Shown here piece after piece: positions 13,645 to 53,600 of a stretch of DNA of 64,000 nt; the stretch's first letter is position 1, and each line of letters opens with the position of its first letter. The notes under the pieces were generated by a model. The model made no database searches, was not told where the DNA came from, and saw only the letters and a list, made by a program, of their open reading frames with translations. The translations under genes and the position numbers were made by a program. The stretch is from Synergistales bacterium (lineage in GTDB: Bacteria > Synergistota > Synergistia > Synergistales > Aminithiophilaceae), in contig JAHDQY010000014.1 of the NCBI GenBank assembly GCA_018433595.1, positions 2,793-66,792 on the forward strand, in the 5' to 3' direction.

Positions 13645-13657
13645 GAGGGGTACAAAA

Positions 13658-36770: not shown

Positions 36771-36773
36771 TTC

Positions 36774-36798: not shown

Positions 36799-36838
36799 GT
36801 GGGCATCAGAGATTCGAAAAACCGAGGAGGAATGGGAA

Positions 36839-38110: not shown

Positions 38111-38216
38111 GGCCGCCCGCTTAAGCGCGGCTCTTCCTGAAGCTCGACGGGCCGGGACGGCGATTCAGCCGCCCCGGCTCGTTCCCGAAAAAACGCCTGA
38201 GAGGATGTCACGGAGC

Positions 38217-40187
38217 ATGAAGAGGTTGATGGTATTTCTGGCGGCCCTCGCCGCCGCCGTCTGCGGCCCCCTGGGGGCTCCCCTGGAGGCCGTGACGGAG
38301 CTTCCCGCCGTTCTCGTCACGGCGGGCGCTCTCGGTGAGGAGGATCAGGAGCTTTCGCCCGGCGCCGTGGCGGTCATCCGCCCTGAAGAGGTGCAGGGCG
38401 AGTTCAAGACCCTTCCCGAACTGCTCGATCAGTCCGTGGGGGTCCACGTCATCCGCACCCAGGGACGGGGCGGCTACACGGTGGCCTCCGTCCGGGGCAG
38501 CACCTCGGCCCAGGTTGCCGTCTACGTCGACGGCACGCTGGCCAATCTCGAGAGCGAAGCCGCCGTCGATCTTTCGACGATCCCCGTCGAGAACGTCGAG
38601 CGCATCGAAGTCTACCGGGGCCACGTGCCGGCCGCCTTCGGCGTCTCCGGCATGGGGGCCGTCATCAACATCGTCACCGTGGCGCCGCGGAAGGCCGAAA
38701 GCTCCCTTCTCGTCGGCCTGGGAGACTACGGGGAGTACCGCTCGGCCCTGCGCCACGCTGCTCCCCTTCTCGGCGGAGATTTTCTTTTCACCGCCGAATT
38801 TTCCGGGAGCGACGGCGATTTCTCCTATCTCAACGACAACGGCACCCCCTACAACACCAACGACGACTATGAGGCCACTCGGCTCAACAACGGCTGGGAG
38901 GGGCGGAACGTCCTCCTCAAATGGAGCCGCGACGCCTGGGCGGCCCGCCTCTCCTGGGAGGATCGGACGCGGGATCTTCCCCTTCAGGCCCCGGGCAACG
39001 ACAAGCCGGCACTCCAGAAGCCCGGCACCCGCCTGGAGACGGAAAAATGGGACGTCGCGCTGGGGCGGAGCTTCCGCGTCGGCGACGTCGACATGAGCCT
39101 TCAGGTCGGCCATCTGGAGCAGGACAAGGAGTTCTTCAACCCCCACAACTACCTGGGCCAGTACGGCGATTACCACAACCGCTACAGATCGGACCGTGAT
39201 TTTCTCTCTCTCTCGGCCTCTCTTCCGGTGGGCCTCAGCCACTACCTGGAGTTCTTCGGTAACGTCTCCCGCGAGGAGCTTCGCGTCGAGGGGGACGTCA
39301 CGGCCAAGCTGGGCGGTCAGAGCCGCTACAGCCGGGACAAGATCGACCTCTCCCTTCAGGATTCGATCACCGTCGGGGCCTCGGGAAACCTTCTGCTTGT
39401 CCCCACCCTTCGATGGAACGACGTCGACGGCGAAGACCATCTCTCCTGGTCGCTCGGTGCCGACTGGCTTTTCGCCCCCTCCTGGCGCCTCAAGGCCTCC
39501 TACGGGCGTTACCACAGGGCCCCCAACCTCTACGAACTCTACGGCGACAGCGCCATGATCCTTCCCAGCCCGAACCTCTCCTGGGAAGAGGGGAGCCAGT
39601 GGGACTTCGGCCTTCACTGGCAGGGAAACTGGAACCGTGTCGAGACCCGCGTCGGCCTCACCTACTTCCGCTCCGAAATGGACGATCTGATCGAATTCGT
39701 CATGATCAATCCCCGTTACGGTCAGTACCGCAACATCAGTAGAGCCGAGATCGACGGCGTCGAGCTGGAGACCCGCTTCATCCGGGCCCCCTGGGACCTG
39801 ACCCTCTCCTACACCTGGATGAAGGCCCTGAACAGGACTCCGGAGAGCTTCCGCAACGACATGAGGCTGCCCAACCGCCCCGAAAACGCCGCCCACGCCC
39901 GATTGGCCTATGACTACTCCGAAAGGCTGACCCTCTACGGCGAGGTCGATTACACGGGAGACAACTTCCTGGATCAGCGGGAGACCATCCGGTACAGCGA
40001 CCTCACCGTCGTCAACGCCGGCCTCCGCTGGGATCTGGACGACGACAAGGTCCTGACCGTCGGCGTCGACGACGTCTTCGACAAGTCGAAGGAGATGACC
40101 CTCGTGCCCACGTCGGGGGCCGAAGGCCTGGCCTGGTACCCTCTCCAGGGACGGACGTGGCACGTGAGCCTGCTCTGGAAATTCTGA
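38217..40187 (+). CDS. TonB-dependent receptor (BtuB-like by context)
   Basis: 656 aa with a signal peptide. TonB box 'ELPAVLVTAG', plug 'VRGSTSAQVAVYVDG...ERIEVYRG', and a beta-barrel ending 'WHVSLLWKF'. The start is the ATG at 38217 or 38205. Confidence 0.85.
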   Translation: MKRLMVFLAALAAAVCGPLGAPLEAVTELPAVLVTAGALGEEDQELSPGAVAVIRPEEVQGEFKTLPELLDQSVGVHVIRTQGRGGYTVASVRGSTSAQVAVYVDGTLANLESEAAVDLSTIPVENVERIEVYRGHVPAAFGVSGMGAVINIVTVAPRKAESSLLVGLGDYGEYRSALRHAAPLLGGDFLFTAEFSGSDGDFSYLNDNGTPYNTNDDYEATRLNNGWEGRNVLLKWSRDAWAARLSWEDRTRDLPLQAPGNDKPALQKPGTRLETEKWDVALGRSFRVGDVDMSLQVGHLEQDKEFFNPHNYLGQYGDYHNRYRSDRDFLSLSASLPVGLSHYLEFFGNVSREELRVEGDVTAKLGGQSRYSRDKIDLSLQDSITVGASGNLLLVPTLRWNDVDGEDHLSWSLGADWLFAPSWRLKASYGRYHRAPNLYELYGDSAMILPSPNLSWEEGSQWDFGLHWQGNWNRVETRVGLTYFRSEMDDLIEFVMINPRYGQYRNISRAEIDGVELETRFIRAPWDLTLSYTWMKALNRTPESFRNDMRLPNRPENAAHARLAYDYSERLTLYGEVDYTGDNFLDQRETIRYSDLTVVNAGLRWDLDDDKVLTVGVDDVFDKSKEMTLVPTSGAEGLAWYPLQGRTWHVSLLWKF

Positions 40188-40268: not shown

Positions 40269-41429
40269 TTAAACGACCATCAGGTCCTTGAACTTTTTCC
40301 CCTGGGCGTAGCGTCTCCAGTGAAAATCGGAAATGTCCAGATCCGACGATCCGCGGATGATCATCTGAGCGACGAGCTCGCCGGCGACGGCGCCGAACAT
40401 GAAGCCACGGCAGCCGGAGACGTTGAGCCAGAGACCCTTGATCTCGTCGGTCTCCCCGATGCAGGGCTGGAGATCGGGCGTGAGGTCGTACATGCCTGAC
40501 CACTGATGGGTGATGCCGATGTTTCTGGTCCGGGGGAGGACCTTCAACAGCACCTGGGCCGTTCGTTCAAGGAAGCCCCAGGAGTTTCCCATGACCTCGG
40601 GATCATGGTCGGCCTTGGTGTAGGCGTTCGGGCCGCATCCGGCGATGATCGTTCCGTTGGGGCGTTGCTGGATGTAGTAGTCTCCTACGAAGCTCATGAG
40701 CATGGTGGGACAGACGTCGAAGTCGACGGCTTCCGTGATGAGGGCTTCGTGGCGTTCTCCGACGACGGGGAAATCGATTCCGGCCATGTCGCCGATATGG
40801 CGGTTCCAGGCCCCGGCGGCGCTGACCACAACGGGGGCATCAATCTCGCCCCGGCTGGTCACCACACCTTTGATCCGCCCGCCGGCCACCTTCAGGCCGG
40901 TGACCTCCGTGAACTTCTGGAATTTGACGCCGAGGCGCTTGGCCGCCTCCTGGTGGGCGATATTGCAGAGGAAGGGATCGGCCTGGCCGTCCCGTTCGTA
41001 GTAGGAGAAGCCGAGAGCATCGTCGACGTTGATGCCGGGGCAGATCGCCCGGGCCTCGTCGTGATCGATCATCCGGGAGGGAACGCCCATGGAGTTTTGA
41101 AGAGCCACGCTCTCCCGGAAGATCTCGACCTCTTTTTCCGTGTAGCCGATCATGAGGTAGCCGTTCTGATAGAGGCCGATATCCATGCCGGTCTCTTCCT
41201 GCATGTGCTCGAACTTATCGATGCACCGCTTCCCCATTTCGATGTTGAGACGTGATCCCCACTGGGCCCGAAAGGCGGCCCCGCAACGTCCCGTCGCTCC
41301 GGAGGCGACGGTTTTCTTTTCCACGAGCACGACGTTTTTCATGCCGAGCTTGGCCAGATGGTAGGCCGTGCACGTGCCCATCATTCCGCCGCCGATCACG
41401 ACGGCGTCAGCGGTTTTCTGCCATTCCAT
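40269..41429 (-). CDS. FAD-dependent oxidoreductase, DAO family (sarcosine-oxidase-beta / HcnC / proline-dehydrogenase-beta-like)
   Basis: 386 aa. 'DAVVIGGGMMGTCTAYHLAKLG' dinucleotide fold and DAO-family length. Confidence 0.75.
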   Translation of the reverse strand: MEWQKTADAVVIGGGMMGTCTAYHLAKLGMKNVVLVEKKTVASGATGRCGAAFRAQWGSRLNIEMGKRCIDKFEHMQEETGMDIGLYQNGYLMIGYTEKEVEIFRESVALQNSMGVPSRMIDHDEARAICPGINVDDALGFSYYERDGQADPFLCNIAHQEAAKRLGVKFQKFTEVTGLKVAGGRIKGVVTSRGEIDAPVVVSAAGAWNRHIGDMAGIDFPVVGERHEALITEAVDFDVCPTMLMSFVGDYYIQQRPNGTIIAGCGPNAYTKADHDPEVMGNSWGFLERTAQVLLKVLPRTRNIGITHQWSGMYDLTPDLQPCIGETDEIKGLWLNVSGCRGFMFGAVAGELVAQMIIRGSSDLDISDFHWRRYAQGKKFKDLMVV

Positions 41430-41710
41430 TACCGGTCACCGCCTTTCGCCGCAACCTTGACCTTGATGGCCTTCACCGGGGGCCGGAAGGTTCCGCAGGG
41501 GATCTCGGCGATCGGGGTGCCCGTCCTGCGGGAGATCTCCCTGAGGATGATGTCCCGGCAGCCCCGTCCCTGACAGGGGCCCATCCCCACGCGAAGAACC
41601 CTCTTCAGCTCATCGAAGGTGTCGTAACCCTTGTCGATCCACTCCCGGATCTCCTCGAGTTCCACCTCTTCGCAACGGCAGACGACGATATTCTGAGGCT
41701 CTTCAGGCAT
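41429..41710 (-). CDS. BFD-like [2Fe-2S]-binding protein
   Basis: 93 aa. 'VVCRCEEVELEEI ... GMGPCQGRGC' is the C-x-C...C-x2-C BFD-like pattern. Its stop overlaps the next ATG by 1 nt (TAATG). Confidence 0.7.
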   Translation of the reverse strand: MPEEPQNIVVCRCEEVELEEIREWIDKGYDTFDELKRVLRVGMGPCQGRGCRDIILREISRRTGTPIAEIPCGTFRPPVKAIKVKVAAKGGDR

Positions 41711-41712
41711 AG

Positions 41713-42222
41713 CTACTTCACCACCCTGACGGCGCGGATATCCATGACCCGATCTCTGGGGACAACGACATGGACGACGCGGGTTTTATCTCTCAACGGT
41801 TCCGTGACGTGGAGAACCTTGCCCTTGGCGACGGCTTCGCCGACCCGATTCAGGCAATCCACGGAAGTTCCCTCGACGGGAACGGGGAGCATCTCGAAGG
41901 GAAGCTTCACGAGAGCCTCATCCGCCTCGCCGTAGGTGAGATCCACCACAAAACAGGCCAGCCCGGGGCACTGGGCCACGCACTTGGCGCAGCCGATGCA
42001 TTTTTCGTAGTCGATGGCGGGCGTATCGTTGATGTCCTTGAAGGGCCTGATCGCGCCGGTGGGGCAACTGGAGGCGCAGGGGTTGCAAGGGATCCTCTGG
42101 GGGCATTCGATGACGACGAGTCCGTTTTTCTTCTTTTCCCAGAGTTCCCGGGGAGGAAGCTCCGCACCGGGACAACGTTCCGTCAAGACTCCGCTGTTGA
42201 AAAGAAGCTCCTTTTCCGTCAT
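41713..42222 (-). CDS. 4Fe-4S ferredoxin-domain subunit
   Basis: 169 aa from the ATG at 42222 (GAGGAGG RBS). 'CPQRIPCNPCASSCP' and 'CIGCAKCVAQCP' are cluster motifs. The track ORF is over-extended. Confidence 0.7.
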   Translation of the reverse strand: MTEKELLFNSGVLTERCPGAELPPRELWEKKKNGLVVIECPQRIPCNPCASSCPTGAIRPFKDINDTPAIDYEKCIGCAKCVAQCPGLACFVVDLTYGEADEALVKLPFEMLPVPVEGTSVDCLNRVGEAVAKGKVLHVTEPLRDKTRVVHVVVPRDRVMDIRAVRVVK

Positions 42223-42224
42223 GG

Positions 42225-43340
42225 TTATGCCTCCTCGCCCCAGTCGCAGCCGCAGTTCGAACATTTTTCGAGGCCGCTCCGGATCTTTGCCCCCACCTCG
42301 CCGGCCCGCAGGTTGGAGAGTCTCTGCCAGAGCTCCAGATATCGCTCCTGGAAGGCCTCTCCCTGGATGCGGCCCAGGGCCCTGGCGATGCTGATCCCGG
42401 AAATCCTTCCCTCGACCATTGCGGCTGAAGCCTCCTCGATTCCCGAGGCGTCGCCGGCGACCCAGAAGTTCGGATTGGTCGTCTGCATGAAGGCGTTCCG
42501 TTGAGGAACGTGTCCGCAAAGCTCCGGGACGTAGGTCATCTTGCAGCCGGCCTGCCAGAGGATTTCCGCCGTCGGGATCAGCCCGACGGCCATGCAGATG
42601 GTATCGCAGTCGATCTTCCTGATCTCCTCCGTCGGGCGGCCCTTTTCATCGACCCGCTGGATATGGGCCCCTGCGACCACGCCCTTTTCCACGATGGCGT
42701 CGGTGATAGTGTGCCTGAGATAAATGGGAACGCCCAGCCGTCTCACCTTGGCCGCATGAACCCAGTAGCCGCCGACTTTCGGCATGAACTCGACGATCCC
42801 GGCGATCTCGACGCCGGCCTGCATGAGCTGGTAGCTGACGATAAGACCGATATTCCCCGCTCCGATCATCAGGACCCGCTCTCCGGGAAAGACCCCGTAG
42901 ACGTTCATCAGGGTCTGGATGGCCCCGGCTCCGTAAACGCCGGGGGCGTCGTTGTTGGGGAAGGGCAGGAGCCTCTCCATCGCGCCGGTGGCGACGATCG
43001 TCTTCTTGGGCCTCAGCCGGATGTACTCTTCCTCGTCTTTGACCAGAGCGACGACTCCGTCATCGGGATAGAAGCCGTTGGCCGTGGTGTTGGACAGGAC
43101 CGTGACGCGGTCTTTGGCCGCCTCCAGCTCCTCGAAGAGGATTTTCGCGATTTTGATCCCTCGGGTCCCGGCATACTCCGCCTCGGATCCGAAGAATTTG
43201 TGAGTCTGCTTCACGAGCTGCCCGCCCAGGGCGAGATCGCTGTCGACCAGAGTCACGTCGCAGCCGTGTGAGGCGGCTTCCACCGCCGCTGAAAGCCCCG
43301 CAGGGCCTCCGCCGATGACAAGAACCTCAGTTTCACGCAA
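42225..43340 (-). CDS. NAD(P)/FAD-dependent pyridine-nucleotide-disulfide-type oxidoreductase subunit (HcnB / OoxA / PDH-alpha-like)
   Basis: 'EVLVIGGGPAGLSAAVEAASHG' and a second 'RVLMIGAGNIGLIVSYQL' dinucleotide fold. The proposed TTG start at 43340 lies 8 nt after GGAAGG, but the start is uncertain. Confidence 0.7.
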   Translation of the reverse strand: MRETEVLVIGGGPAGLSAAVEAASHGCDVTLVDSDLALGGQLVKQTHKFFGSEAEYAGTRGIKIAKILFEELEAAKDRVTVLSNTTANGFYPDDGVVALVKDEEEYIRLRPKKTIVATGAMERLLPFPNNDAPGVYGAGAIQTLMNVYGVFPGERVLMIGAGNIGLIVSYQLMQAGVEIAGIVEFMPKVGGYWVHAAKVRRLGVPIYLRHTITDAIVEKGVVAGAHIQRVDEKGRPTEEIRKIDCDTICMAVGLIPTAEILWQAGCKMTYVPELCGHVPQRNAFMQTTNPNFWVAGDASGIEEASAAMVEGRISGISIARALGRIQGEAFQERYLELWQRLSNLRAGEVGAKIRSGLEKCSNCGCDWGEEA

Positions 43341-43683
43341 GACCGTCACCTTCCTTTTGCGCTTCGGGCTCGCTCCAGGGAACAGAGCCGTTTCCTTTCT
43401 GGCTCTGGACGACCATTCCCGCCTTGAGGGGCGTGACGCAGATGCGAACGTTGGGAACCCCGTCAACGGTCATAAAACAGGAAGAACACTTGCCGATGGC
43501 ACAGAAAAAGCCGCGGGGGCGCTTCGTCTTAGGCGTCTCCCTGTAGATCCTGATCTTGTTGGCATGAAGGGCCGAAGCGATCGGCTCCCCCTCGTAGCCC
43601 TCCAGACTCCTGCCGTCGAAGCTGAACGTCACTTTCCTTGCATGATGAAACTCCAGGATCGGGTGTTCCTTGATCAAGTTCAT
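43333..43683 (-). CDS. small [2Fe-2S] subunit (Fer2_4; HcnA / sarcosine-oxidase-alpha N-terminal-like)
   Basis: 116 aa from the ATG at 43683 (GGAGGAGGG upstream). 'FFCAIGKCSSCFMTVDGVPNVRIC' is the Cys pattern. Confidence 0.65.
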   Translation of the reverse strand: MNLIKEHPILEFHHARKVTFSFDGRSLEGYEGEPIASALHANKIRIYRETPKTKRPRGFFCAIGKCSSCFMTVDGVPNVRICVTPLKAGMVVQSQKGNGSVPWSEPEAQKEGDGLA

Positions 43684-43719
43684 CCAGAGACCCTCCTCCA
43701 TGAGTGATGAAAGGGACAG

Positions 43720-45879
43720 CTAGAGTTGCTGATACTTCAGACAGAGATCCATAACGTCGGGATCGTCAAGTCCGAGACGGGTGAGGGTTTCCGGCTTGGG
43801 AACCCCTTCGTCCGTCCAGCCCCGCCGCTCATACATGGCTGTCATGAGATCCTCGTAATAGCCTTCCCGGTACTTGCGGAGCTTGGCGATCTTCTTTTCC
43901 AGTTTCATCCCGTCGGTGTCGAGCTCCGTCTTCTCTCTCAGGCACTCGTCGTAGTAGACCTCGCGATGGAGGTACTCGTCAGGGGTGACGGGCCCCATGG
44001 CGCGGTAGGGGCCTCGGTCGTGAGCTCTGCCGACGAGGCCCATCTTGATGTTGATCATGCGCTGCAGGTTGTAGATCCTCTCGGATTGCTCGAGCATTCC
44101 GGCCTCGCCCAGAGGTCTTCCAGTAACGGCCGTGTAGATCCGGATGTAATTGTCGACGTGTTCGGGAATGCGCTCGGGGTGCTTCGTCATCCCGTTGTCG
44201 GCCGGCTGGATGTCGGCCCAGGGCATCTTGCAGATCCCCTGGAGGCCGAACCAGGTGCGCAGAGTGCTCAGGTACCAGACGGCCTCCACTTTCTCTTCGA
44301 TGGTGTTGAGACGGCCGCTCATGACCTCCATCCCCATCATCCAGGTCTCGTCGTGCTGAGCGCCCTTGTTGGCCATGGCGTAGCCGATCTGCTGGGTCGT
44401 GCACTCTTTGGTGACGTACTCGGAGTATTCGAGGCCCTTGGCCTCCATCCCGAAATCCCGGAGCTCTTCGGGATCGGCGCCGTACTTCCTGGCAAAATAG
44501 GCTTTCATTCGTCGGATGCCCATACCGAAGATTTTGCCGAAGCCTTCGCCCCGGGCAAGCCGGTGCAGCAGTTCAAGCTGGGCGTCGCTATTGCCGAAGC
44601 GCAGCTCGAGGCCGCCGGTGCGTTCCCTGTCGAGGATGCCGCGCTCGTAGCACTCCATGACGAAGGCGCAGCATGTGCCGAAGGAGATCGTATCCAGTCC
44701 GTAGGTGTCGCAGTAGAAGTTGCACTCGGCGATGACATAGGGGTCGAAAATGCCGCAGTTGCTTCCCACGGCGCCCAGAGTTTCGTACTCGGGGCCATCC
44801 ACGCAGACCCGTTTTCCTCTGTAGGGGCCGGTCTTGAGCTCGAAGCCGTCGATGGCCTTGGCGCACTGAAGAGAGCAGCCGTACCAGCAGCCGTCGGGTG
44901 CCTTTTGAGTAAAGAGTTTCTCCCAAACGGGCGAGTCGATCTTGTGATATTCAGGGTGGCAAGTGTACTTGAAATTATTGACAGGCAACAGATTAAAGCC
45001 ATTGCAGACATGTACGAGGAATGTCGTTCCGTTGCGGCGCATGTTGACCTGCTTGCGATCCAGGGAGAAAACTTCATCATGAACGATCCGTCCCAAGCGC
45101 GCAACCGTTTCAGGGTCATCGGCATTGACAAGATCACCGCGAACGCCCATGGATTTAACAACGATAGCTTTAATTTTTTTGTCTCTTAAGACCGTGCCGA
45201 TACCGCCTCTTCCTGCCTGCTTGAGACGCACGCAGCCGCGCCTGAGATCGTAGAAGGAGAAGTTCAGCATCCCGAAGAGGGCGTTTTCGGCACCAGAGCC
45301 TGTCGAAATGACTGAAACGGCCCGTTTTTCCGTTTCGTTACGGCCGAAGGCCTGCGTGATCTCCTCGGCCAAGAGGTGGCTGTCCTGGACCTCGGGAAGA
45401 AAGTCCCTGACGATGAGAACTTCCTCCCGGTCTCCGTCGATGACGAGCATGACATCGTCGTCGGCCTTGCCTCGGATTTCCAGGGCGTCCCATCCGGCAC
45501 ACTTGAGCAGAGGGCCGAAGTAGCCGCCGACGTTGCTGTCGATGGCCGTTCCCGTCATCGGGGATAAAGAGACGACCATCGATTTGCCGATGCCCGGATA
45601 GGAGGTGACGCCTGCGAGAGGCCCGGGCGAAACGATGATCTCGTTCTCGGGATCGTCCCATCGGGTCCCCTCTTTGACGGCATCCCAAAGGAACTTGATG
45701 CCGAAGCCGCGGCCGCCGATGTACTTCCGCTTCATCTCTTCGGAGACATCCTTCGAGATGATGCCGTTGGAGGAGAGATCGACGAAGAGCGTCCTGCTCG
45801 TGTAGCCTTTTTCGATGGTCGCCCGCCTGTACGGGTAACGGGCGAGGAGATCGTCTCCGAAGGCGATGTCGAGATTCAT
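43720..45879 (-). CDS. aldehyde:ferredoxin oxidoreductase (AOR) family tungsto/molybdopterin enzyme
   Basis: About 719 aa. The AFOR_N-like N-terminus is 'YTSRTLFVDLSSNGIISKDVSEEMKRKYIGGRGFGIKFLWD'. 'CNFYCDTYGLDTISFG' and 'DETWMMG' are AOR family segments. The start is uncertain: the 45879 ATG is preferred, but 45903 and 45924 are possible. Confidence 0.8.
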   Translation of the reverse strand: MNLDIAFGDDLLARYPYRRATIEKGYTSRTLFVDLSSNGIISKDVSEEMKRKYIGGRGFGIKFLWDAVKEGTRWDDPENEIIVSPGPLAGVTSYPGIGKSMVVSLSPMTGTAIDSNVGGYFGPLLKCAGWDALEIRGKADDDVMLVIDGDREEVLIVRDFLPEVQDSHLLAEEITQAFGRNETEKRAVSVISTGSGAENALFGMLNFSFYDLRRGCVRLKQAGRGGIGTVLRDKKIKAIVVKSMGVRGDLVNADDPETVARLGRIVHDEVFSLDRKQVNMRRNGTTFLVHVCNGFNLLPVNNFKYTCHPEYHKIDSPVWEKLFTQKAPDGCWYGCSLQCAKAIDGFELKTGPYRGKRVCVDGPEYETLGAVGSNCGIFDPYVIAECNFYCDTYGLDTISFGTCCAFVMECYERGILDRERTGGLELRFGNSDAQLELLHRLARGEGFGKIFGMGIRRMKAYFARKYGADPEELRDFGMEAKGLEYSEYVTKECTTQQIGYAMANKGAQHDETWMMGMEVMSGRLNTIEEKVEAVWYLSTLRTWFGLQGICKMPWADIQPADNGMTKHPERIPEHVDNYIRIYTAVTGRPLGEAGMLEQSERIYNLQRMINIKMGLVGRAHDRGPYRAMGPVTPDEYLHREVYYDECLREKTELDTDGMKLEKKIAKLRKYREGYYEDLMTAMYERRGWTDEGVPKPETLTRLGLDDPDVMDLCLKYQQL

Positions 45880-45976
45880 CGGCACTTCTTGATTTTGTGG
45901 CATCTGGCTGAAGGTACCCCCCAAAGATTTCGTATTGGAAAAATCCGTGAAACCGGGCCGGATTTCTCTTCGTCGG

Positions 45977-46022
45977 TTCCATCAAGAGAGCGGACCCCCA
46001 GGGCGACGCTCTCTTGATGGAA
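45977..46022 (-). other. 16-bp perfect stem-loop between the symporter and AOR genes
   Basis: TTCCATCAAGAGAGCG-(14 nt)-CGCTCTCTTGATGGAA with no adjacent U tract. A second small hairpin (AAATCCG...CGGATTT + T5) follows on the minus strand. Confidence 0.6.
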
Positions 46023-46063
46023 CGCTTCACTTCAACACCCGATTCACAGAGCTCTCTTGAGGT

Positions 46064-47536
46064 TCAGGCTGTGCGGAGCTCAGCCGCTTTCGTCTCGCCG
46101 TACCTGCTGCCCAGGTAAGCGGCGATCACGGCGGCGGCAAACCCGACGATCCGGGCGCTCACCACGGCCTCCATCGGCGAATAGTTCCAGATCATGGTGG
46201 TGATGAAGCCCACGACCATGGTCCATACGGCACCGTAGGCGTTGAACTTTTTCCAGAAAAGAGTCATCAGGGTCAGAGCGGAGAAGGAGTTGCCCAGTCC
46301 GGCCCAGGCGAAGGCGACGATGGCGTAGACGAGCCCCTCCGGAAGGAGAAAAACCAGCGCAAAGGCGGCCAGTCCGCCGATCAGCGTCACCCAGCGGGAG
46401 ATCCAGAGACTCTGCTTGCCGGTCAGATTCGCACCCTTGAGGAAAAAGGGCTTGATGATGTCTTCTGAGAGTTCCGAGGCCGTCAGGATGAGCATCGAGT
46501 CGGCCGTGGAAAGCATGGCGGCGATGGCCGACGTGACAAAGAGGGCACCCAGGAAGGGGGGGAAGACCTTCATCACGACCATGGGCATGACCGTCTCCGC
46601 ATCGGTCAGCTGATCGGGGCCGAAAATGGCTAGCCCGGCGAGGCCCAGAAGAATGGCGCCGGCATAGCCGCAGATCGTCCAGGCGATGCCAATGTTCCGG
46701 GCCTGCTTCGCCGCCTTGTCGTTTTCGATGGACATGAAGCGGACCGTAAGGTGAGGGCATCCCCCGAGGTAGGCGAAAAACCAGGAGAAGGCGTTGCCGA
46801 TCATCAGGCCTGCGGCGAACCCCTTGGCCCCCCCGGTCCAGCTGCCATAGGATCCCCCAGCCATCTTGAGAGCGGCCCCGATCGAAGGGGCGTAGACGTC
46901 GGGATGGCTACCGATATATTTGACGGCGAAGATGGGACCGAGAATGAGGGTGGCGATCATGAGGAGGGACTGGACGCAGTCGGTGTAGACGACGCTCTGG
47001 TAACCGCCGTAGAAGGTGTAGGGGATGATGATGCAGACCGTGACGATGATGCCTGTTATCGGCTTGATCCCGAACATGGCGTTCAGGGTCTTGCCACCGC
47101 CGATGAGCTGCGCCTCGACATAAAAGGTGAAGAGAAAGACGATGATCATGGCTCCGATAAATCGGATGGCGGCGTTGAGCTGGGGATGCTTCTTGGCCGC
47201 CCAGTCGACATAGGTGGAGGCGTCGACATCCTCCGCTTGGTCGCGCATTTTCCTGGCGATGACCCACCAGGCCACGATATTGCCGGCGGCCAGCCCTAAG
47301 GCGACCCACACCGTCACAAGTCCCGCTGCGTAGGCGTATCCGGGAAAACCTACGAGGCACCAGGCCGACTCGCCAGTAGCGCGCTCGGAAAGCGCCGCGG
47401 CCCAGCCGGGGATCTTGCGTCCACCCATCGTGTAATCGGAATCGGATTTGACCTTTCGCCCCTGGAACATTCCCACCCCGAGAAGGAGTAGAAGGTATCC
47501 GACCAGAACTAATAATCGTATCGTGGATTCCTGCAT
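46064..47536 (-). CDS. sodium:solute symporter, PutP-like (proline by context)
   Basis: 490 aa from the ATG at 47536 (GAGGGGGG RBS). 'SDYTMGGRKIPGWAAALSERATGESAWCLVGFPGYAY' is a typical SSF N-terminus. The 71-codon upstream extension in the track is rejected. Confidence 0.8.
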   Translation of the reverse strand: MQESTIRLLVLVGYLLLLLGVGMFQGRKVKSDSDYTMGGRKIPGWAAALSERATGESAWCLVGFPGYAYAAGLVTVWVALGLAAGNIVAWWVIARKMRDQAEDVDASTYVDWAAKKHPQLNAAIRFIGAMIIVFLFTFYVEAQLIGGGKTLNAMFGIKPITGIIVTVCIIIPYTFYGGYQSVVYTDCVQSLLMIATLILGPIFAVKYIGSHPDVYAPSIGAALKMAGGSYGSWTGGAKGFAAGLMIGNAFSWFFAYLGGCPHLTVRFMSIENDKAAKQARNIGIAWTICGYAGAILLGLAGLAIFGPDQLTDAETVMPMVVMKVFPPFLGALFVTSAIAAMLSTADSMLILTASELSEDIIKPFFLKGANLTGKQSLWISRWVTLIGGLAAFALVFLLPEGLVYAIVAFAWAGLGNSFSALTLMTLFWKKFNAYGAVWTMVVGFITTMIWNYSPMEAVVSARIVGFAAAVIAAYLGSRYGETKAAELRTA

Positions 47537-47816
47537 TAAGGTTCCCCCCTCATCATTGTAAAGGAAGTGCGACAATTCGAAAGGGCAGCTCATTCTAGAC
47601 GTTGTTGGGTGATCATGTCGTCTGAAGGTCTTGGGACAACCGTATTCTCTGGAAGGGATGTCCCCAGGGAACATGGTCGAACGGGTGTTTTGTGAACCCC
47701 TGCTTTGACAAAGAGCCGCTTTTCTTTGGCGCGCGACAAGGTGGTGCACCAGCCTGTGAATCCTCCTAAAGATTCTTTGTCCTCACGACCTCCCTTCCTT
47801 GAAAACTCAATTAGTG

Positions 47817-47844
47817 AATGAAAGATCTTGATCTAATAGAAGGC
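47817..47844 (-). promoter_or_regulatory. conserved element copy 1 (core AATGAAAGATCTT) in the putP-like leader
   Basis: A 13-nt perfect match, and 25/31 nt overall, to 49332-49362. It contains the palindrome AAGATCTT and lies about +25 to +52 from the predicted TSS. Confidence 0.55.
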
Positions 47845-47875
47845 TTATAAAAAAGAAATATTTCTTTCTTTTTTC

Positions 47876-47903
47876 AGTATATATGGCGAACTTGTTTTGT
47901 CAA
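47876..47903 (-). promoter_or_regulatory. sigma70-like promoter TTGACA-16-TATACT for the putP-like gene
   Basis: The minus strand has the -35 at 47898-47903 and the -10 at 47876-47881. This implies a 5' leader of about 330 nt. Confidence 0.5.
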
Positions 47904-48072
47904 GCATATAATCCTGACGAGTGAGCATTGATTGCGGAGAGCCGTTGCGTTAGGGATCTCTGTTCGTTTGGTTTTGAGCTTTCAGGGGGTTGGGGGAGGA
48001 ATTGAAGGGGCTACACAAGTCGCCCGAGTGTTCCCTCTTCGAAGGAATCCGTCGGCGGAAGAAGGGGGCGTC

Positions 48073-48117
48073 AAAAAAATAAAGGAGAGGATCTCGTCGA
48101 TCCGCGAGATCCTCTCC
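48073..48117 (-). terminator. rho-independent terminator of the cyclodeaminase-family gene
   Basis: 13-bp perfect stem GGAGAGGATCTCG/CGAGATCCTCTCC with an 8-nt loop, followed by TTTATTTTTTT on the minus strand. Confidence 0.8.
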
Positions 48118-48135
48118 CTGGAGGATCTTGAGGTT

Positions 48136-49260
48136 CTACCTCCAGTAGGCTTCTTCGAAGAAGACGTATTCCGTACCGAGGCCCATCTCCAGAGCCTTCT
48201 CATAAAGCGTGTAGCCCCAGGCCAGGTCATGGACGGGCATGCCGCCCGTGGGGAAGAGGATGATCTCGTCGTCGTCCTTCCGCCCGGGGTCGTCGCCGTT
48301 GACGACATCGCCAAGGTTGCGGATTTTCGATTCGTCGTAGAGTCCGTCGTTGACGTATCGGAGGAGGAAGAAGGAAGGCGCTACGACGCCGACGGCGTCG
48401 ATTCCCTGGGGATGCTCCTTGCCGTCGAGAATGAAGGCCTGATGCATCTTCCAGTTGTCGGCGATGACGGTGTTCTCCGAGAAGCAGTCCAGGTCCATTT
48501 CGGCGGCTCCGGTGAAGGTGACGAGACAGCCTTTCTTGAGCCACTCCTTCTCGATGCGGGGAAAGGTCGCTCCGGAGGTGGCGATGGTGACGATGTCGGC
48601 GGGGCAGACGGCGGCCTCGATAGAGGGAGCCCAGTGAACCTTGACGCCGACCTTGTCGGCCATCTCCTTGGCGAAGGAGTCGAATTTGTCCTTGTTGATG
48701 TCGTAGAGGTAGGCCTCCTCGACGGTGGGACATCCGGCCTTGATGGCCAACAGGCAGGCGCGGTTGATGACGCCGCCGCCGATGACGCCCACCGTCTTGG
48801 CGCCCTTCCGGGCCAGATGGCGGGCTGCGACGCCGGGGACAGCGCCGGTGCGCATGGCGCTGATGAGGTTTCCTGAGAGAATGGCGAAGGGGACACCCGT
48901 ATCGGAATCGTTGAGGATGGTCGTCAGAATCGAGCGAGGGAGCCCCTTTTTCCAGTTCTGGGCGTTGGATCCGTACCACTTCTCGCCGCAGATCTTGTAG
49001 CGGCCGCCCAGGTAGGCGATCATGGCCATGAAACGACGGTCGGGACCGGTGACGGGCATCCCGGGGAAGCGCTCCGTATCGGGGAAGTAGATCATCTGTC
49101 CGTGTTCGTTCTCGAGCGGCCCTCCCATAAGGTAATCGCCCTTGCCCAGGAGACTGAAAACTTCCTCGATGACGTCGACGCACTTGGGCATATCGAGAAC
49201 GCCTGCCTTCACCAGATCCGACTGGGACAGAAGTAGTGTCTTGACGCTTGTATCAGCCAT
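48136..49260 (-). CDS. ornithine cyclodeaminase / mu-crystallin family protein
   Basis: 374 aa. 'AMRTGAVPGVAARHLARKGAKTVGVIGGGVINRACL' Rossmann segment and family-typical length. Substrate not determinable from the sequence. Confidence 0.7.
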   Translation of the reverse strand: MADTSVKTLLLSQSDLVKAGVLDMPKCVDVIEEVFSLLGKGDYLMGGPLENEHGQMIYFPDTERFPGMPVTGPDRRFMAMIAYLGGRYKICGEKWYGSNAQNWKKGLPRSILTTILNDSDTGVPFAILSGNLISAMRTGAVPGVAARHLARKGAKTVGVIGGGVINRACLLAIKAGCPTVEEAYLYDINKDKFDSFAKEMADKVGVKVHWAPSIEAAVCPADIVTIATSGATFPRIEKEWLKKGCLVTFTGAAEMDLDCFSENTVIADNWKMHQAFILDGKEHPQGIDAVGVVAPSFFLLRYVNDGLYDESKIRNLGDVVNGDDPGRKDDDEIILFPTGGMPVHDLAWGYTLYEKALEMGLGTEYVFFEEAYWR

Positions 49261-49334
49261 GGCAAACCCTCCTTGTAGAGATAGATGGGAACGGCAAATT
49301 CACAAAAGGTGCGGAGAAGAACCGCAACATCGTT

Positions 49335-49362
49335 AATGAAAGATCTTTATCACATAGCAGCC
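49335..49362 (-). promoter_or_regulatory. conserved element copy 2 (core AATGAAAGATCTT) in the cyclodeaminase leader
   Basis: See 47817-47844. It lies about +20 to +47 from the predicted TSS of the promoter at 49388-49416. Confidence 0.55.
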
Positions 49363-49387
49363 ATTGAGTGATATTTATTTCACCGCT

Positions 49388-49416
49388 ACTCTAGCAGAGG
49401 GCGATTTAGAAAGCAA
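49388..49416 (-). promoter_or_regulatory. candidate promoter TTGCTT-17-TAGAGT for the cyclodeaminase-family gene
   Basis: The minus strand has the -35 at 49411-49416 and the -10 at 49388-49393. Confidence 0.4.
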
Positions 49417-49645
49417 GCATTTCATTGATCTTGTTTTTTGAAAGAGTTGTTTCTCGGATGGCCTTTCGGATGGAACCACAAGGGAGCGTCTTTCTCCCGG
49501 GGTTGGACCGCTTCAGCTCGTTGCCGCGGAATGGGGAGAGCCTGGCCTTTTCTTTGCGCGATGTGGCATAATGCTAAGGCATTTAAAGTATGAAAAATGT
49601 CGGTTTCTCGAGGCCGATGGAGACATCAGGAGAGCAGGTGACCCC

Positions 49646-50536
49646 ATGAACGTCAACAAGCAGGTCGATGGTGATCTTTTCAGCCGCCTCCGCCGGGGGG
49701 CGGAAGCCTTTCCGAGCCAGCAGCAGCTTGTCTGCGGCTACATCATCGGCCACTACCAGGAGGTGGCCTTCATGACCGTCGAGGAGCTGGGCCAGGCCAG
49801 TGGCGTCAGCCCCGCAACGGTGGTCCGTACGGTGGCCCGTCTCGGTTACGAGAGCTACCACGATCTTCTTCAGGAGATTCAGGAGATGCTCATCTCTACC
49901 AGGACCTCCCTCTGGTGGCAGATCGAGAAATCCTGGGACTACCGGGAAAACCCCGAGTTCGAATCGGGAGGGCGTGTCCTCTCCGAGGTGGCCCGCCAGA
50001 ACGTCGAGAGCATCCAACGCTCCCTTTCCCCTCTGCTGCTTGAGAACTTCGCCAAGGCCTGCGACATCCTCAAGGGGGCGCGGAAGCTGGCTATTCTGGG
50101 CCTGCGCTCTTCCCGTGGTGCCGCCCTTATCTGCTACTCCCTTTTCAACCAGTTTCTCGACAACGTCCTCCTCCCCGATCATGCCGGTTCCGACGAGATG
50201 TACGCCGATCTCGTCGATCTCGATGGGAACGACGCCCTCCTGGCCATTTCTGTCGGAGGCCCCCACTTCGCCTGCCGGACCCTCGAGGCCGTCGACTTCG
50301 TTCATGGCCAGGGAGTGCCCGTCGTTCTCATCACCACCGACATGGCCTGTCCCGCAGCCCCCTCGGCCGATGTTCTCCTTCACGTCGTCGCCACTGAAGG
50401 GCATTACTCTCTCGTGCCGGTCCTCACCGTTGTCGATGCCCTCGTCGTGGAGCTGGGTCACCACTATCGCGATAGCGCTATCAAGAAACTGCGGACCCTG
50501 GAAAAGCTTCTCGTCGATAAGAAGATCACCCTTTGA
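49646..50536 (+). CDS. MurR/RpiR-family transcriptional regulator (HTH_6 + SIS domain)
   Basis: 'LVCGYIIGHYQEVAFMTVEELGQASGVSPATVVRTVARLGYESYHDL' HTH and a C-terminal SIS-like 'LAILGLRSSRGAA...ALLAISVGG'. The ATG at 49646 has an AGGAGAG RBS. Confidence 0.75.
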   Translation: MNVNKQVDGDLFSRLRRGAEAFPSQQQLVCGYIIGHYQEVAFMTVEELGQASGVSPATVVRTVARLGYESYHDLLQEIQEMLISTRTSLWWQIEKSWDYRENPEFESGGRVLSEVARQNVESIQRSLSPLLLENFAKACDILKGARKLAILGLRSSRGAALICYSLFNQFLDNVLLPDHAGSDEMYADLVDLDGNDALLAISVGGPHFACRTLEAVDFVHGQGVPVVLITTDMACPAAPSADVLLHVVATEGHYSLVPVLTVVDALVVELGHHYRDSAIKKLRTLEKLLVDKKITL

Positions 50537-50624: not shown

Positions 50625-53600
50625 ATGAAAAGGCGCGCTTTGGCTTGGATCTGTCTCTTTTTTTGCTGGATCGGGGCATCGATGGCCCGGGCCGACGATT
50701 TTCAGGTGCTCTCCGTTATGCCCCAGGGAGAGACGGCCGGGCGTCCCGAGATCAGTCTGACCTTTTCGGCGCCGGTGGCCGACGAGTCCCTTCAGGGGAG
50801 GACCCTCCCTCCGGAGCGGCTGCCCCTGGAGATCCGCCCCCGCCTCGAGGGGGACGGCGCCTGGGACGGCGCCGATCGGCTGGTTTTCACGCCCCGGGCG
50901 CCCCTGGCTCCGGCCACGGAGTACCGGTTGACCCTCAAGCCCCTCCGGGACCGCTCCGGCCGGCTTCTGGCCGGCCCTCAGTCCTTCGAGTTCCGCACGG
51001 CTCCCCTGAAGCTCCTTGAGGTGCGCCCCGTCGAGAGGGACCCCTACGGCGGGATGACGCTGGAGTTCGTTTTCTCCCTTCCCGTCCCCCCTCAGAGGCT
51101 TTCGGGTTTCGTCTCGGCCGAGAGCGGAGGCCAGACGGTGAATCTGGCCCCTCAGGGTCAGGTCCCGTCGGAGAAGGTCCGCGTCACGGCCGACTCCGTC
51201 CCCGGTCCGACGCTGACTCTGAAGGTGGAGAAGGGCCTCGCCGCCGATGTCGGGCCTCTGGGGCTGGAGGAGACGCGGACGATCACCGTCGACGCCTCGG
51301 CAAGGCTGACCGTCACCGGAAGCTATGCCGAGAGCCGGGATGACCAGGGACGCATCTTCCTCTACACCTCCCGCCCCGTCGACCCCGGTGACGTGAAGGG
51401 CTACCTGACCCTGTCGCCGCAGAGATCCTTCCGGGTCGAGCCGCTTTACGCCGGTTTCGCCCTCGTCGGCGATTTCGCCCCTAGGGAACGGATCACCGTC
51501 ACCCTGAAGAAGGGGCTGGGCGGGAGCGACGGCCTCGAAGCCGATAAAGTCCAGTCGTTCGTCATGCCCGATCGGGACCGGTCCGTCCGGTTTCCCCTGG
51601 CGGGGACCTTCCTCACCCCCGTCGAGGAGCCCCGCATCGCCCTGGAGACGGTCAATCTCGACGCTGTCGAGATTTCAGCCTGGAAGCTCTACCCCAACAA
51701 CATTCCTCTCGTGACGGGGGCCCTCGGCGACGGGGGTGAGCCGCCCAAGGCCCTGGCCCTCTCTTTCGGGACGAAGCGCTTCCGCGTCGACAACCGGCTC
51801 AACGGGACGGTGCGGGGAGCCGTCGATCTCGGTGAGCTTCTCGGCGAGAGTCGAGGCGTCTTCCTCATCGAGGCCGGCGACGGCGAGGGAGGCTGGAACG
51901 TGGCCCGCCAGATGGTGACCCTCACCGATCTGGGCCTTTCGGCCCGGGTTTGGGAGAGGGGGATGCTGGTCTGGGTCAACGCCCTATCTTCGGCCGAGCC
52001 CCTCAAGGGAGCCTCCGTCTCGGTCTACTCCTCGAGCAATCAGCTTCTGGCACGGGGAGTCACCGACGGAGACGGTCTCTGGGTCGCCCGCCGGGAGAGC
52101 TCCTGGGAGAGTCAGCTGCGCCCCGCCGTGATCACCGTCGAGCACGAGGGGGATCTCTCCTTCCTGATCCTCGCGGGGGACCGCTTCGCCGACGCGGGAG
52201 TGGACGGTTCCGGCGCTCCCTGGGTGACGACCTACGAGGTCGACTGCCTCCTCCCCCGGGGGATCTTCCGCCCCGGCGAGACCGTCGACGTGACGGCTCT
52301 CGTCCGGGACGGCAGGATGAACCCGGCCGGCACCTTCCCCCTCCTCTGGAAGGTGACCAACTCTGTCGGAATGGAGGTCTTCCGGGGGTCGGAGAAGCTC
52401 TCTCCGGCGGGGACGATGAGGGCCGCCTTCGATCTTCCCCCTGAGGCCCCCACGGGGCGCTACCGTTTCGATCTCTTCGCGGCGGGTCAGGAGGAGAGGC
52501 CTCTGGGAGGTGCCGCCTTTCAGGTCGAGGATTTCACCCCTCCCCGGATCGATGTCAACCTCACCTCACCCCGGAGCCTTCTCCTGGCGGGAGAGACTCT
52601 TCACCTCGATTTCAACGCCGCCTATCTCTTCGGGGCCCCCTCGCCGGGGCTCAACTGGGAAATTCAGGCCGTGACGCTGCCCCGGACCTTCCGGTCCCTG
52701 CGCTTTCCCGAGTTCGCCTTCGGCGACGGTGAGAAGAGCTTCCAGAGATCGGAAGAGCATCTCGGGTCGGGGACGCTCGACGACGAGGGGCGGGGCGGTC
52801 TCGACTGGACCGTTCCCGAGGGCTGGAAGGCTCCCTCCCAGGTGGATCTGGTCTGCTCTTTCCAGGTGATGGAGCCCGGCGGCCGCTGGGTCTCGCGTCA
52901 TCTCTCGCTGCCTTGTGCCGTGACGCCTCTTCAGATCGGCATCCGCTCCCCCGTCGGCGATCTCCGGCCCGGTGTGCCCCTCCCCTTCCGGGTGGCGGCG
53001 GTGACGGCCGACGACACTCCCGCCGAGGCTTCCCTCACCTGGGAGCTCTTCTCCCTCGCCGACCGCTACGTCATGGTCCGCGAAGAGGGACGGACGCGGA
53101 TGCGCTGGCAGGAGGAGAAGGTCCCCCTTGCCGAGGGCGGTCTTGTCCTGAAGGAGGGTCTTGCCGATCTCTCCCTTGAACCCGGGGGCGAAGGGCGGTT
53201 CCTCCTTCTCCTCTCCGACGGCAAAGGGTCGTCGGCCTCGGCCCGTTTCGATGTCTGGCACCCCTGGGGGCAGTCGGCCAAAGGGGCCTCGCTCCCCGAC
53301 CGGGTCGATCTGGAGCTGGACAAGCCGCTCTACAGGCCCGGCGAGAGGGCCTCTCTCGCCTACCGGGCCCCCTTCCCCGGGCGGGCTCTCGTCACTGTCG
53401 AGGCGGAGGGGCTCGTCCGGGCCCAGGTCCTCAAATCGGTCGACGCCGAGGGGACCGTCACCGTCGATGTCGACCGATCGATCTGGCCCAACGGCTGGTG
53501 CACCTTCCAGGTGATCCGTCCCATGGAGGGGGGCGACGGAGGACCTTCGAGCGCCCTGGGCGCCCTCCCGCTGACGGTGGAGAGCGAACGCCTCAAGGCC

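Follow-up and report, generated by a model that had tools for sequence, protein, structure and literature searches.

The window analyzed here, a stretch of 64,000 nt from a Synergistales bacterium (Aminithiophilaceae; assembly GCA_018433595.1, contig JAHDQY010000014.1, positions 2,793-66,792; coordinates below are those of the window), contains a run of minus-strand genes for an ornithine cyclodeaminase (OCD)/mu-crystallin-family enzyme, a PutP-like sodium:solute symporter, an aldehyde oxidoreductase (AOR) of the AOR/WOR family and five small flavin- and iron-sulfur-binding proteins that resemble the subunits of the heteromeric L-proline dehydrogenase (PDH) of Thermococcales; a gene for an RpiR-family regulator diverges from this run (Table 1). 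Genes were called from a list of open reading frames (ORFs) with inspection of start codons and ribosome-binding sites (RBS), and domains were assigned with Pfam and NCBIfam; all nine genes named in an earlier reading of the same DNA (the original prediction) were reproduced with their sizes, domains and coordinates. The tight packing claimed for the five small genes (−8 to +2 nt) agrees with the measured junctions of −1, +2, +2 and −8 nt (the last one −17 nt with the GTG start at 43349), and the stop codon of the AOR gene lies 18-36 nt from the start of the Fer2_4 gene. Identical copies of the locus were present only in two Logan assemblies (SRR13787006 and SRR13787013); the closest beta subunit in the GTDB representative set has 61% identity, and the nearest relative locus (L081; L numbers denote the loci compared) possesses the same AOR gene and five-gene block with a 91% identical beta.

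Table 1. Genes and predicted regulatory elements of the locus (window coordinates)
Feature	Position	Strand	Length	Assignment and remarks
Beta subunit	40269-41429	−	386 aa	Pfam DAO 2.3e-67; catalytic flavoprotein family
Delta subunit	41429-41710	−	93 aa	Fer2_BFD 9.5e-11 and SO_alpha_A3 3.2e-9; BFD-like [2Fe-2S]
Gamma subunit	41713-42222	−	169 aa	Fer4_7 6.8e-8; two 4Fe-4S motifs
Alpha core	42225-43340/43349	−	371 aa (TTG 43340) or 374 aa (GTG 43349)	Pyr_redox_2 3.9e-34
Fer2_4 protein	43333-43683	−	116 aa	Fer2_4 8.7e-32; [2Fe-2S]
AOR/WOR-family pterin oxidoreductase	43720-45879	−	719 aa	AFOR_N 3.2e-48 and AFOR_C 5e-99; large subunit only
Two hairpins between transporter and AOR genes	45938..46023	−		Inverted repeats
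SSF sodium:solute symporter, PutP-like	46064-47536	−	490 aa	Pfam SSF 5.8e-63
Sigma-70-like promoter TTGACA-16-TATACT	47903..47876	−		11/12 consensus matches, consensus match only; 5' of transporter gene
Intrinsic terminator	48119..48082	−	15-bp stem	T-run; inverted repeat confirmed; directly 3' of OCD-family gene
OCD/mu-crystallin-family enzyme	48136-49260	−	374 aa	Pfam OCD_Mu_crystall 9.7e-61; NF004848
RpiR-family regulator	49646-50536	+	296 aa	SIS 3.9e-6 and HTH_6 4.6e-5; RBS-supported ATG at 49646; divergent

The comparison with the archaeal enzymes was based on the beta subunit of Pyrococcus horikoshii PDH1, which was rebuilt from a PDB alignment and used to reach the Thermococcales proteins; a second beta was then located in the P. 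horikoshii genome. The P. horikoshii operon of this second beta (L090) encodes an alpha subunit of 479 aa (Fer2_4 and Pyr_redox_2), a gamma of 168 aa (two [4Fe-4S]), a delta of 88 aa (Fer2_BFD and SO_alpha_A3) and a beta of 377 aa (DAO). The window proteins are 56% (Fer2_4 protein), 51% (alpha core), 46% (gamma), 42% (delta) and 33% (beta) identical to their P. horikoshii counterparts, with the Fer2_4 protein aligning to residues 3-97 and the alpha core to residues 119-473 of the archaeal alpha. On sequence criteria, the five small genes are a bacterial counterpart of the alpha-beta-gamma-delta L-proline dehydrogenase of Pyrococcus and Thermococcus, in agreement with the original prediction, which had placed them in the family of HcnABC, OoxAB, LhpBEF and archaeal PDH, nearest to the Thermococcales enzyme: Gene order, domains, identities and the best structural match of beta (1y56_B) all conform to this placement. 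The separate BFD-like ORF, regarded there as the product of a split of a domain normally fused to the alpha/HcnB-type subunit, turned out to be the known delta subunit, because the order and content of the P. horikoshii operon match those of the window exactly; it appears "split" only if compared with HcnB/SoxA-type alphas, and a locus-specific division of this gene was therefore rejected. The architecture departs from the archaeal one at a single point: The Fer2_4 domain is detached from alpha and forms a protein of its own. This is the region of the archaeal alpha (the N-terminal ~120 residues) that has been described as the counterpart of the gamma subunit of the heterotrimeric enzymes (Watanabe et al., PMC4575208).

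The resemblance is closest to the PDH2 type known from Thermococcus profundus and P. horikoshii, with which the window shares the alpha-gamma-delta-beta order, the domain content, both dinucleotide-binding motifs in alpha and the residues aligned with His-225 and Tyr-251 of beta. In the alpha core, the two GxGxxG motifs (VIGGGPAG and MIGAGNIG...E) are of the FAD- and the NAD(H)-binding type, and the cysteine motifs of the module account for two [2Fe-2S] and two [4Fe-4S] clusters (Fer2_4 protein: C-x4-C-x2-C-x12-C, as read from the sequence). In contrast to the PDH2 type, the window alpha is distributed over two ORFs (the 116-aa Fer2_4 protein and the core of 371-374 aa), the host is a mesophilic-type bacterium, and an AOR-family gene without equivalent in the P. 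horikoshii operon is co-transcribed with the module. With the heterotrimeric enzymes HcnABC, LhpBEF and OdhABC the module has in common a stand-alone Fer2_4 protein (HcnA, LhpE, OdhC), the [2Fe-2S] motif C-x4-C-x2-C-x11-12-C (PMC4575208), a DAO-type catalytic beta and the faster divergence of beta relative to the common electron-transfer subunits. Those heterotrimers, however, lack a subunit with two [4Fe-4S] clusters (169 aa in the window), contain the BFD-like cluster within alpha rather than in a separate protein (93 aa in the window), and originate from aerobes in which the electrons enter the respiratory chain. The hallmarks of the heterotetrameric sarcosine oxidase SoxBDAG (the folate-binding GCV_T domain at the C-terminus of alpha, SoxD and SoxG) were not found at the locus by Pfam, and the scores on the corresponding profiles were far below the cut-offs (TIGR01373 soxB, 158 versus 529 bits; TIGR01372 soxA, 170 versus 1164 bits).

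A scan of one genome per species retrieved 532 relatives of the beta subunit, and the genomic context was analyzed for the best 80 of these loci. Wherever flanking sequence sufficed, the order Fer2_4-alpha-gamma-delta-beta was preserved, that is in more than 70 independent loci, so that the five-gene arrangement is not a matter of chance; among the best 80, the module occurs in Synergistota, Bacillota, Atribacterota and Chloroflexota. In these loci, the electron-transfer subunits are better conserved (55-77%) than beta (42-61%). Among the 67 loci in which at least 3 kb of sequence was available downstream of beta, genes for 2-oxoacid:ferredoxin oxidoreductase (KOR) follow in 23, for AOR in 8 and for a molybdenum-type AOR in 5. 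The 2-oxoacid:ferredoxin oxidoreductase characterizes a large paralogous clade, where it would fit the onward use of glutamate. In A. flavidum, genes for HypD, a proline racemase-family protein and an LhpI-like protein occur together with the module. Members of the Aldedh and Pro_dh Pfam families were absent from every annotated locus. Some loci (L059, 4921-7218; L024, 10001-15398) have two different betas that share a single alpha/gamma/delta set or adjoin sets arranged in tandem; the identity of the paired betas to that of the window is 38% and 47% in one case and 51% and 34% in the other, an arrangement reminiscent of the "subunit exchange" of the opine dehydrogenases OdhB1 and OdhB2.

The best PDB match of the window beta is the P. 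horikoshii PDH beta (1y56_B, 2.8e-66, 227 bits), followed by dimethylglycine dehydrogenase (1e-40) and the sarcosine oxidase beta SoxB (~3e-31, 112 bits). Clustering of beta with sarcosine enzymes had been named in the original prediction as an outcome that would contradict it; the PDB search favors PDH beta over SoxB. In the phmmer alignment to 1y56_B, ERHE is paired with YKHQ and DYYIQQ with HAYLTQ at positions His-225 and Tyr-251, both of which are invariant in the beta family alignment. These two residues of the Pyrococcus beta reportedly have a catalytic role according to mutagenesis by Monaghan et al. in 2007. Cluster analysis assigned the window beta to a clade of 14 loci (referred to as window-type) that is defined by the motifs NVS-G[ACS]RGFMFG and GRC[GA]A[AS]FRAQW, and every locus with a long OCD-family gene, an SSS transporter or a molybdenum-type aldehyde oxidoreductase near the module belongs to this clade.

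The AOR, to which the original prediction had given no role, retains in its alignment to 1aor the three plus one cluster cysteines, GPEYE and the pterin motif DxxGLD (DTYGLDTIS), as well as all residues aligned with Thr-243, Glu-313, Tyr-427 and His-448 of the Pyrococcus furiosus AOR, which are the typical second-shell residues of aldehyde-oxidizing members (PMC13328260). With AFOR_N and AFOR_C, four cysteines, these second-shell residues and no adjacent WorS gene, the protein has the attributes of a Class I aldehyde-oxidizing AOR/WOR, the exceptions being a first cysteine spacing of C-x3-C instead of C-x2-C and a glycine aligned with Asp-489. It shares the single large subunit, the [4Fe-4S] cluster and the conserved second-shell residues with P. 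furiosus FOR, for which C4-C6 semialdehydes or dialdehydes are the presumed substrates (PMC12096430), and with the Class I WORs; besides the deviating spacing and the glycine, it differs from them in being ~100 residues longer and in belonging to a clade that carries no assigned role in the published classification. The solved structures of AOR, FOR and WOR5 are matched about equally well (4.6e-57 to 2.1e-46). Participation of the AOR in a bifurcating complex of the WOR1 type was considered and discarded, as the partners of WOR1 are HydABC-like and unlike the module.

Comparative analysis of the gene contexts revealed that an aldehyde oxidoreductase is a constant partner of the window-type clade. 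In the window and in L081 (86% identity) the enzyme 5' of the module is tungsten-type by family, the bound metal being a prediction; in L005, L006, L007, L083, L086/87, L101, L105 and L107 its place is taken by a molybdenum-type enzyme of 973-976 aa that scores above the cut-off of the NCBIfam equivalog "molybdopterin-dependent aldehyde oxidoreductase" (1115 versus 1100 bits) and is accompanied by the usual DVU_1555-type and dicluster partners. The occupation of one slot by two unrelated enzyme types points to an aldehyde intermediate. In a paralogous clade of Synergistota (L027/28/40/49), the module is followed by an AOR (47-50% identity to that of the window), an activase and the glycyl radical enzyme HypD, which in these loci is the hydroxyproline dehydratase and thus a producer of delta-1-pyrroline-5-carboxylate (P5C); by this order, the AOR gene stands between two P5C-forming enzymes. 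Bacillota loci contain, in this order, a sigma-54 activator, an SNF transporter, the module, a ferredoxin and an AOR of 53-54% identity. Taken together, the P5C-forming neighbors and the presence of either type of aldehyde oxidoreductase suggest the oxidation of glutamate semialdehyde to glutamate as the simplest chemistry, and this gene context makes the P5C/glutamate-semialdehyde oxidizing step the likely function of the window AOR.

The OCD-family protein scored 396 bits on NF004848 (cut-off 362). Its best match in the PDB is a delta-1-pyrroline-2-carboxylate (Pyr2C) reductase (6t3e, 1.6e-38), followed by SbnB and AfAlaDH; the Pseudomonas OCD (1u7h) was matched at only 4e-10. The 374-aa subfamily is highly conserved, with invariant substrate-binding residues (Lys-94, Arg-137 and Asp-345), an invariant Rossmann motif (GVIGGGVINRA) and an invariant polar insertion of its own (ADNWKMH...EHPxG). 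Its neighborhoods were inspected in 80 metagenome loci, in which transporters are the commonest neighbors (GltS-like in 29/80 loci; also TRAP/TAXI, APC permease and SSS), accompanied by regulators (a sigma-54 activator closest to PrdR, RpiR and LysR); proline-racemase-like dehydratases were not among the commonest neighbors. Only the 72-75% identical copies of Synergistota are located together with an SSS transporter, a window-type module and a molybdenum-type AOR. Such neighbors are in keeping with the direct conversion of an imported amino acid into a common metabolite; they argue against a Pyr2C reductase, since this would depend on a partner that forms Pyr2C. Ornithine cyclodeamination is the most economical reading of the OCD-family enzyme, with a likelihood that lies slightly below an even one or at best reaches it. 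An OCD/mu-crystallin-family gene beside heteromeric PDH genes is also found in the Thermococcus litoralis cluster, which comprises TlLhpI, trans-3-hydroxy-L-proline (T3LHyp) dehydratase and two PDH operons and for which Synergistota homologues (Thermovirga lienii) were already noted (PMC4141209); the window differs from it by an OCD-family protein of another subfamily (374 aa, NF004848), by the absence of a proline-racemase-family gene and by the presence of the AOR and the PutP-like transporter.

The genes of the minus-strand run are as originally described. The run is probably divided into three transcription units instead of forming one, as judged from the terminator behind the OCD-family gene, the promoter-like element ahead of the transporter gene and two hairpins between the transporter and AOR genes (Table 1); only the AOR gene and the five small genes are tightly coupled. 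Between the transporter and AOR genes, a perfect 17-bp stem with a 14-nt loop (45976-46023) is followed by a shorter stem (45938-45968) and TTTTT; these hairpins could be a partial terminator, an attenuator or an RNA-stabilizing element. No riboswitch or leader RNA was detected 5' of the transporter or AOR genes at the Rfam gathering threshold, and a permissive scan of positions 45800-49700 gave sub-threshold chance matches only; an operator palindrome was not found in the intergenic region between the RpiR and OCD-family genes. Orthologues of the transporter (53-61% identity) adjoin the module in the window-type clade, and RpiR homologues are located beside the long OCD-family gene in many unrelated loci. 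With respect to horizontal transfer, the composition of the locus (57-62% GC versus 64-65% in its flanks) was not distinctive, and transfer as judged from composition was rejected.

The reading that best accommodates these data, to which we assign somewhat less than an even chance, is a route from proline via P5C and glutamate semialdehyde to glutamate in which the AOR reduces ferredoxin. The six-gene unit AOR-Fer2_4-alphaC-gamma-delta-beta would then take the place of PutA without a need for oxygen or quinones. The five small proteins would assemble into a heteromeric dehydrogenase of the PDH2 type, in which the FAD flavoprotein beta oxidizes the C-N bond, an FMN is bound where alpha and beta meet, the alpha core holds FAD and binds NAD(H), and the iron-sulfur clusters are contributed by two [2Fe-2S] proteins and one protein with two [4Fe-4S] clusters; electrons could leave through the NAD(H) site of alpha and through the ferredoxin-like gamma. 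The substrate of this complex, L-proline or a cyclic imino acid very similar to it, would be oxidized to P5C; the P5C ring would open to glutamate gamma-semialdehyde, which the co-transcribed AOR would oxidize to glutamate with the reduction of ferredoxin. The PutP-like symporter is envisaged to import the substrate, the OCD-family enzyme to act on the imported amino acid, most simply by converting ornithine to proline and ammonia and thereby feeding the route, and the RpiR regulator to control at least the OCD-family gene. The net conversion of proline to glutamate via P5C/glutamate semialdehyde would be that of PutA; the folds, however, are unrelated (TIM-barrel PRODH and aldehyde dehydrogenase in PutA versus a DAO-type flavoprotein and a tungsto/molybdopterin enzyme in the window), and the acceptors would be iron-sulfur centers, NAD and ferredoxin rather than quinone and NAD+.

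Several observations weigh against this route, the first group of which concerns beta. The window-type betas have G-[ACS]-R-G-F (G-C-R-G-F in the window) and A[AS]FRAQW in place of the otherwise conserved SGHGF and GAGIRAQW, which are retained by both archaeal types (PDH1 and PDH2) and by 69 further bacterial betas; in a regular-expression survey of 150 beta representatives without the window-type spelling, histidine dominates the motif position and arginine is sporadic elsewhere. At the putative FMN motif R-x-W, the window beta has H-Q-W. Both S-G-H-G-F and R-x-W are common to all characterized members (R-x-W: PMC4575208), including the PDH2-type enzymes. Moreover, a second module, in which the standard motif is present, accompanies the window-type one in the same genomes (L007/L063 on one contig; L005/L044; L004/L072; L006/L062; L001/L057), which suggests a different substrate for the window-type beta. 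As a result of the motif change and of the second module, the identity of the substrate is uncertain: The homology to PDH that led to proline in the original prediction is confirmed, and L-proline is, from sequence comparison, a plausible substrate of the window-type beta, yet not a secure one.

The OCD-family enzyme is the subject of a second group. The cyclization triad of OCD (Glu-56, Asp-228 and Lys-232 in Pseudomonas putida numbering; PMC4141209) is replaced by Met-78, an alanine and a leucine: Met-78 aligns with Arg-52 of AfAlaDH (the equivalent of Glu-56), and the alanine and leucine of FTGAAEMDLD align with Val-224 and Ala-228 of TlLhpI, the second and third positions being less certain than Met-78 since the alignment crosses an indel-bearing loop. 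In the alignment of the NF004848 subfamily, Met-78 is invariant and the alanine nearly so. The gene is monocistronic with a terminator of its own. The NCBI label of NF004848 (formerly PRK06199), "tyramine oxidase subunit B", was not traceable to any paper and was not used; it may mislead, as the commonest partner of the gene is a GltS-like transporter and not an oxidase subunit. In Stenoxybacter acetivorans (L092, 1436-11063), a 66% identical OCD-family gene is inserted between soxB-soxD-soxA-soxG-purU and an ammonium transporter gene, and in L005 (Synergistaceae) the OCD-family gene adjoins an ammonium transporter gene (Amt). As a side observation, both contexts may hint at N-methyl amine or ammonia-releasing metabolism. 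The conversion of ornithine to proline, the starting point of the original prediction, is thus the weaker step of the proposed route, because the triad is absent and the gene is separately transcribed; the superfamily assignment stands, and within it the protein belongs to a separate subfamily. That the enzyme could instead be a Pyr2C reductase had been anticipated as an objection; its best PDB match speaks for this and the lack of a Pyr2C-forming partner among its neighbors against it. Finally, the best NCBIfam match of the transporter, PutP TIGR02121 (2.1e-95), reached 320 bits and remained below the cut-off of 515, and the 2026 classification of WORs makes no mention of proline (PMC13328260).

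A further possibility, which we regard as doubtful, is that the five-subunit module is a flavin-based electron-confurcating proline dehydrogenase. The potential of the P5C/proline couple is about −120 mV, and proline alone cannot reduce NAD+ in a quinone-free fermenter. Similar to the lactate dehydrogenase/Etf complex, the module would draw electrons from both proline and reduced ferredoxin, the latter as the low-potential donor, to form two NADH, and the ferredoxin would be reduced next door, here by the AOR and in the paralogous clade by 2-oxoacid:ferredoxin oxidoreductase. The predicted endowment with three flavins, an NAD(H) site and four iron-sulfur clusters (including a ferredoxin-like subunit), together with the ferredoxin-reducing neighbors, is compatible with such a mechanism, which in turn would explain why ferredoxin-reducing enzymes (AOR and KOR) are constant neighbors of the module. 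No paper that links a proline dehydrogenase with such bifurcation was found in the literature searched.

Among the alternatives to a proline route, an improbable one is the demethylation of an N-methyl amino acid of the sarcosine or N-methylproline type by beta. Formaldehyde would be set free since the complex has no folate domain, and would be oxidized to formate by the AOR or the molybdenum enzyme, in line with the oxidation of formaldehyde by some AOR-family enzymes (PMC12096430); the OCD-family enzyme would act as a dehydrogenase of N-methyl amino acids or alanine, for which the T. litoralis homologue TlLhpI, with its N-methyl-L-alanine dehydrogenase activity, provides a precedent (PMC4141209). 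The altered motif in the active-site region of beta relative to proven PDHs would be understandable on this basis, as would the Sox and ammonium (methylammonium) transporter genes of Stenoxybacter, the Amt gene that follows the OCD-family gene in L005, the MttB-family methyltransferase and BCCT transporter genes that adjoin the cluster in L086 and the MttB-like gene in L108. These MttB/BCCT and Sox neighbors are, however, confined to single loci, beta is far nearer to PDH beta than to SoxB (227 versus 112 bits), the transporter is PutP-like, and the same AOR family is tied to the P5C producer HypD in the paralogous loci.

The pathway might also start from lysine, with the OCD-family protein as a lysine cyclodeaminase, the module oxidizing L-pipecolate to piperideine-6-carboxylate and the aldehyde oxidoreductase converting alpha-aminoadipate semialdehyde to alpha-aminoadipate; we consider this hardly likely. 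The chemistry likewise yields a semialdehyde and so suits an aldehyde oxidoreductase as partner, archaeal PDH also oxidizes L-pipecolate (PMC4141209), and the true proline enzyme of these genomes could be their other module, the one with the standard motif; in L101, an APC-type amino-acid permease is present. Lysine cyclodeaminases do belong to the same superfamily (PDB matches 5gzi/5yu0), but the likeness of the window protein to them is unspecific (1.5e-11, partial), aminoadipate-processing genes were not seen nearby, and the stand-alone unit of transporter, OCD-family gene and regulator (~40 loci) would end in pipecolate, a less sensible product than proline.

Equally small is the probability we assign to a route of the T. 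litoralis type, in which the OCD-family enzyme reduces Pyr2C (or a ketimine) derived from D-proline or 3-hydroxyproline to L-proline, which the module then oxidizes. The match to 6t3e, the hydrophobic residues at the triad positions (Met, Ala, Leu; Leu, Val, Ala in TlLhpI) and the clustering of an OCD-like Pyr2C reductase with two PDH operons in T. litoralis (PMC4141209) are in accordance with it, and a proline racemase-family gene is located 5' in L102. In the window, by contrast, neither a proline-racemase-family dehydratase nor a D-amino-acid dehydrogenase is encoded, and in ~80 loci the enzyme is paired with transporters and regulators instead of Pyr2C-forming enzymes. In addition, the LhpI-like protein of A. 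flavidum represents a different subfamily (327 aa; 135 bits on NF004848, well under the cut-off), and the long subfamily is set apart by its invariant polar insertion. Mere adjacency, with the OCD-family and RpiR genes as an independent amino-acid deaminase unit and the AOR as a general aldehyde detoxifier that happens to share the operon, could be argued from the separate terminator and promoter, from 81-83% identical OCD-family relatives without a module nearby (L093-L096, L110) and from detoxification as the default view for WOR clades, most of which have no defined role (PMC13328260), but it is unlikely in view of the 18-36 nt between the AOR and Fer2_4 genes and the recurrence of long OCD-family gene, SSS transporter, window-type beta module and aldehyde oxidoreductase in at least 12 loci despite shuffling of the gene order and the replacement of W-AOR by Mo-AOR.

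Outside the locus, the window includes further features. A cobalamin riboswitch (36550-36740, plus strand; Rfam, 95.6 bits, E 1.6e-22) is situated 5' of the genes for a 475-aa protein without Pfam match (36683-38110) and a TonB-dependent receptor (38094-40187), the latter of which converges on the beta gene; these elements probably serve the uptake of B12 and have no relation to the locus. The genes dnaA and dnaN (about 30270-32930, minus strand; gene calls of the identical contig L084) are located ~8-10 kb from the beta gene, so that the window includes the replication-origin region. An island of low GC content (10000-16200; 43-47% versus ~63% around), possibly acquired horizontally, encodes a fusion of a sensor kinase with a solute-binding domain, a response regulator of the LuxR type, a BPL_N-like protein and, at 13658-15124, another SSF transporter. 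A 1497-aa ORF without any Pfam match occupies positions 4683-9176 (plus strand), and a 1730-aa bacterial alpha-2-macroglobulin (50625-55817, plus strand) adjoins the RpiR gene.

That thermophilic bacteria possess heteromeric PDH-like genes, with OCD-like genes next to them, had already been noted in 2014 (PMC4141209). The split alpha, the coupling to tungsten- or molybdenum-type aldehyde oxidoreductases, the G-x-R-G-F beta clade and the OCD-family subfamily were not found described in the literature searched, nor was anything relevant on a bacterial PDH in Synergistetes. In the 2026 survey, five of 92 WOR clades have a defined role (PMC13328260). The analysis also draws attention to a beta clade that has an altered motif in its active-site region and may act on a new substrate, and to a widespread OCD-family subfamily whose current database name looks unsupported. 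To our knowledge, strict anaerobes that ferment amino acids possess neither PutA nor a quinone pool, and their route of proline oxidation is poorly defined. For these organisms, the locus offers a candidate pathway in which a bacterial PDH homologue is wired to an aldehyde:ferredoxin oxidoreductase instead of a P5C dehydrogenase; if correct, it would provide a physiological substrate for one AOR/WOR clade. The interest would be higher if the AOR coupling or confurcation were confirmed: In the case of confurcation, the AOR/PDH pair would be a self-contained anaerobic substitute for PutA, and a physiological function would be assigned to one of the ~87 WOR clades without a defined role.

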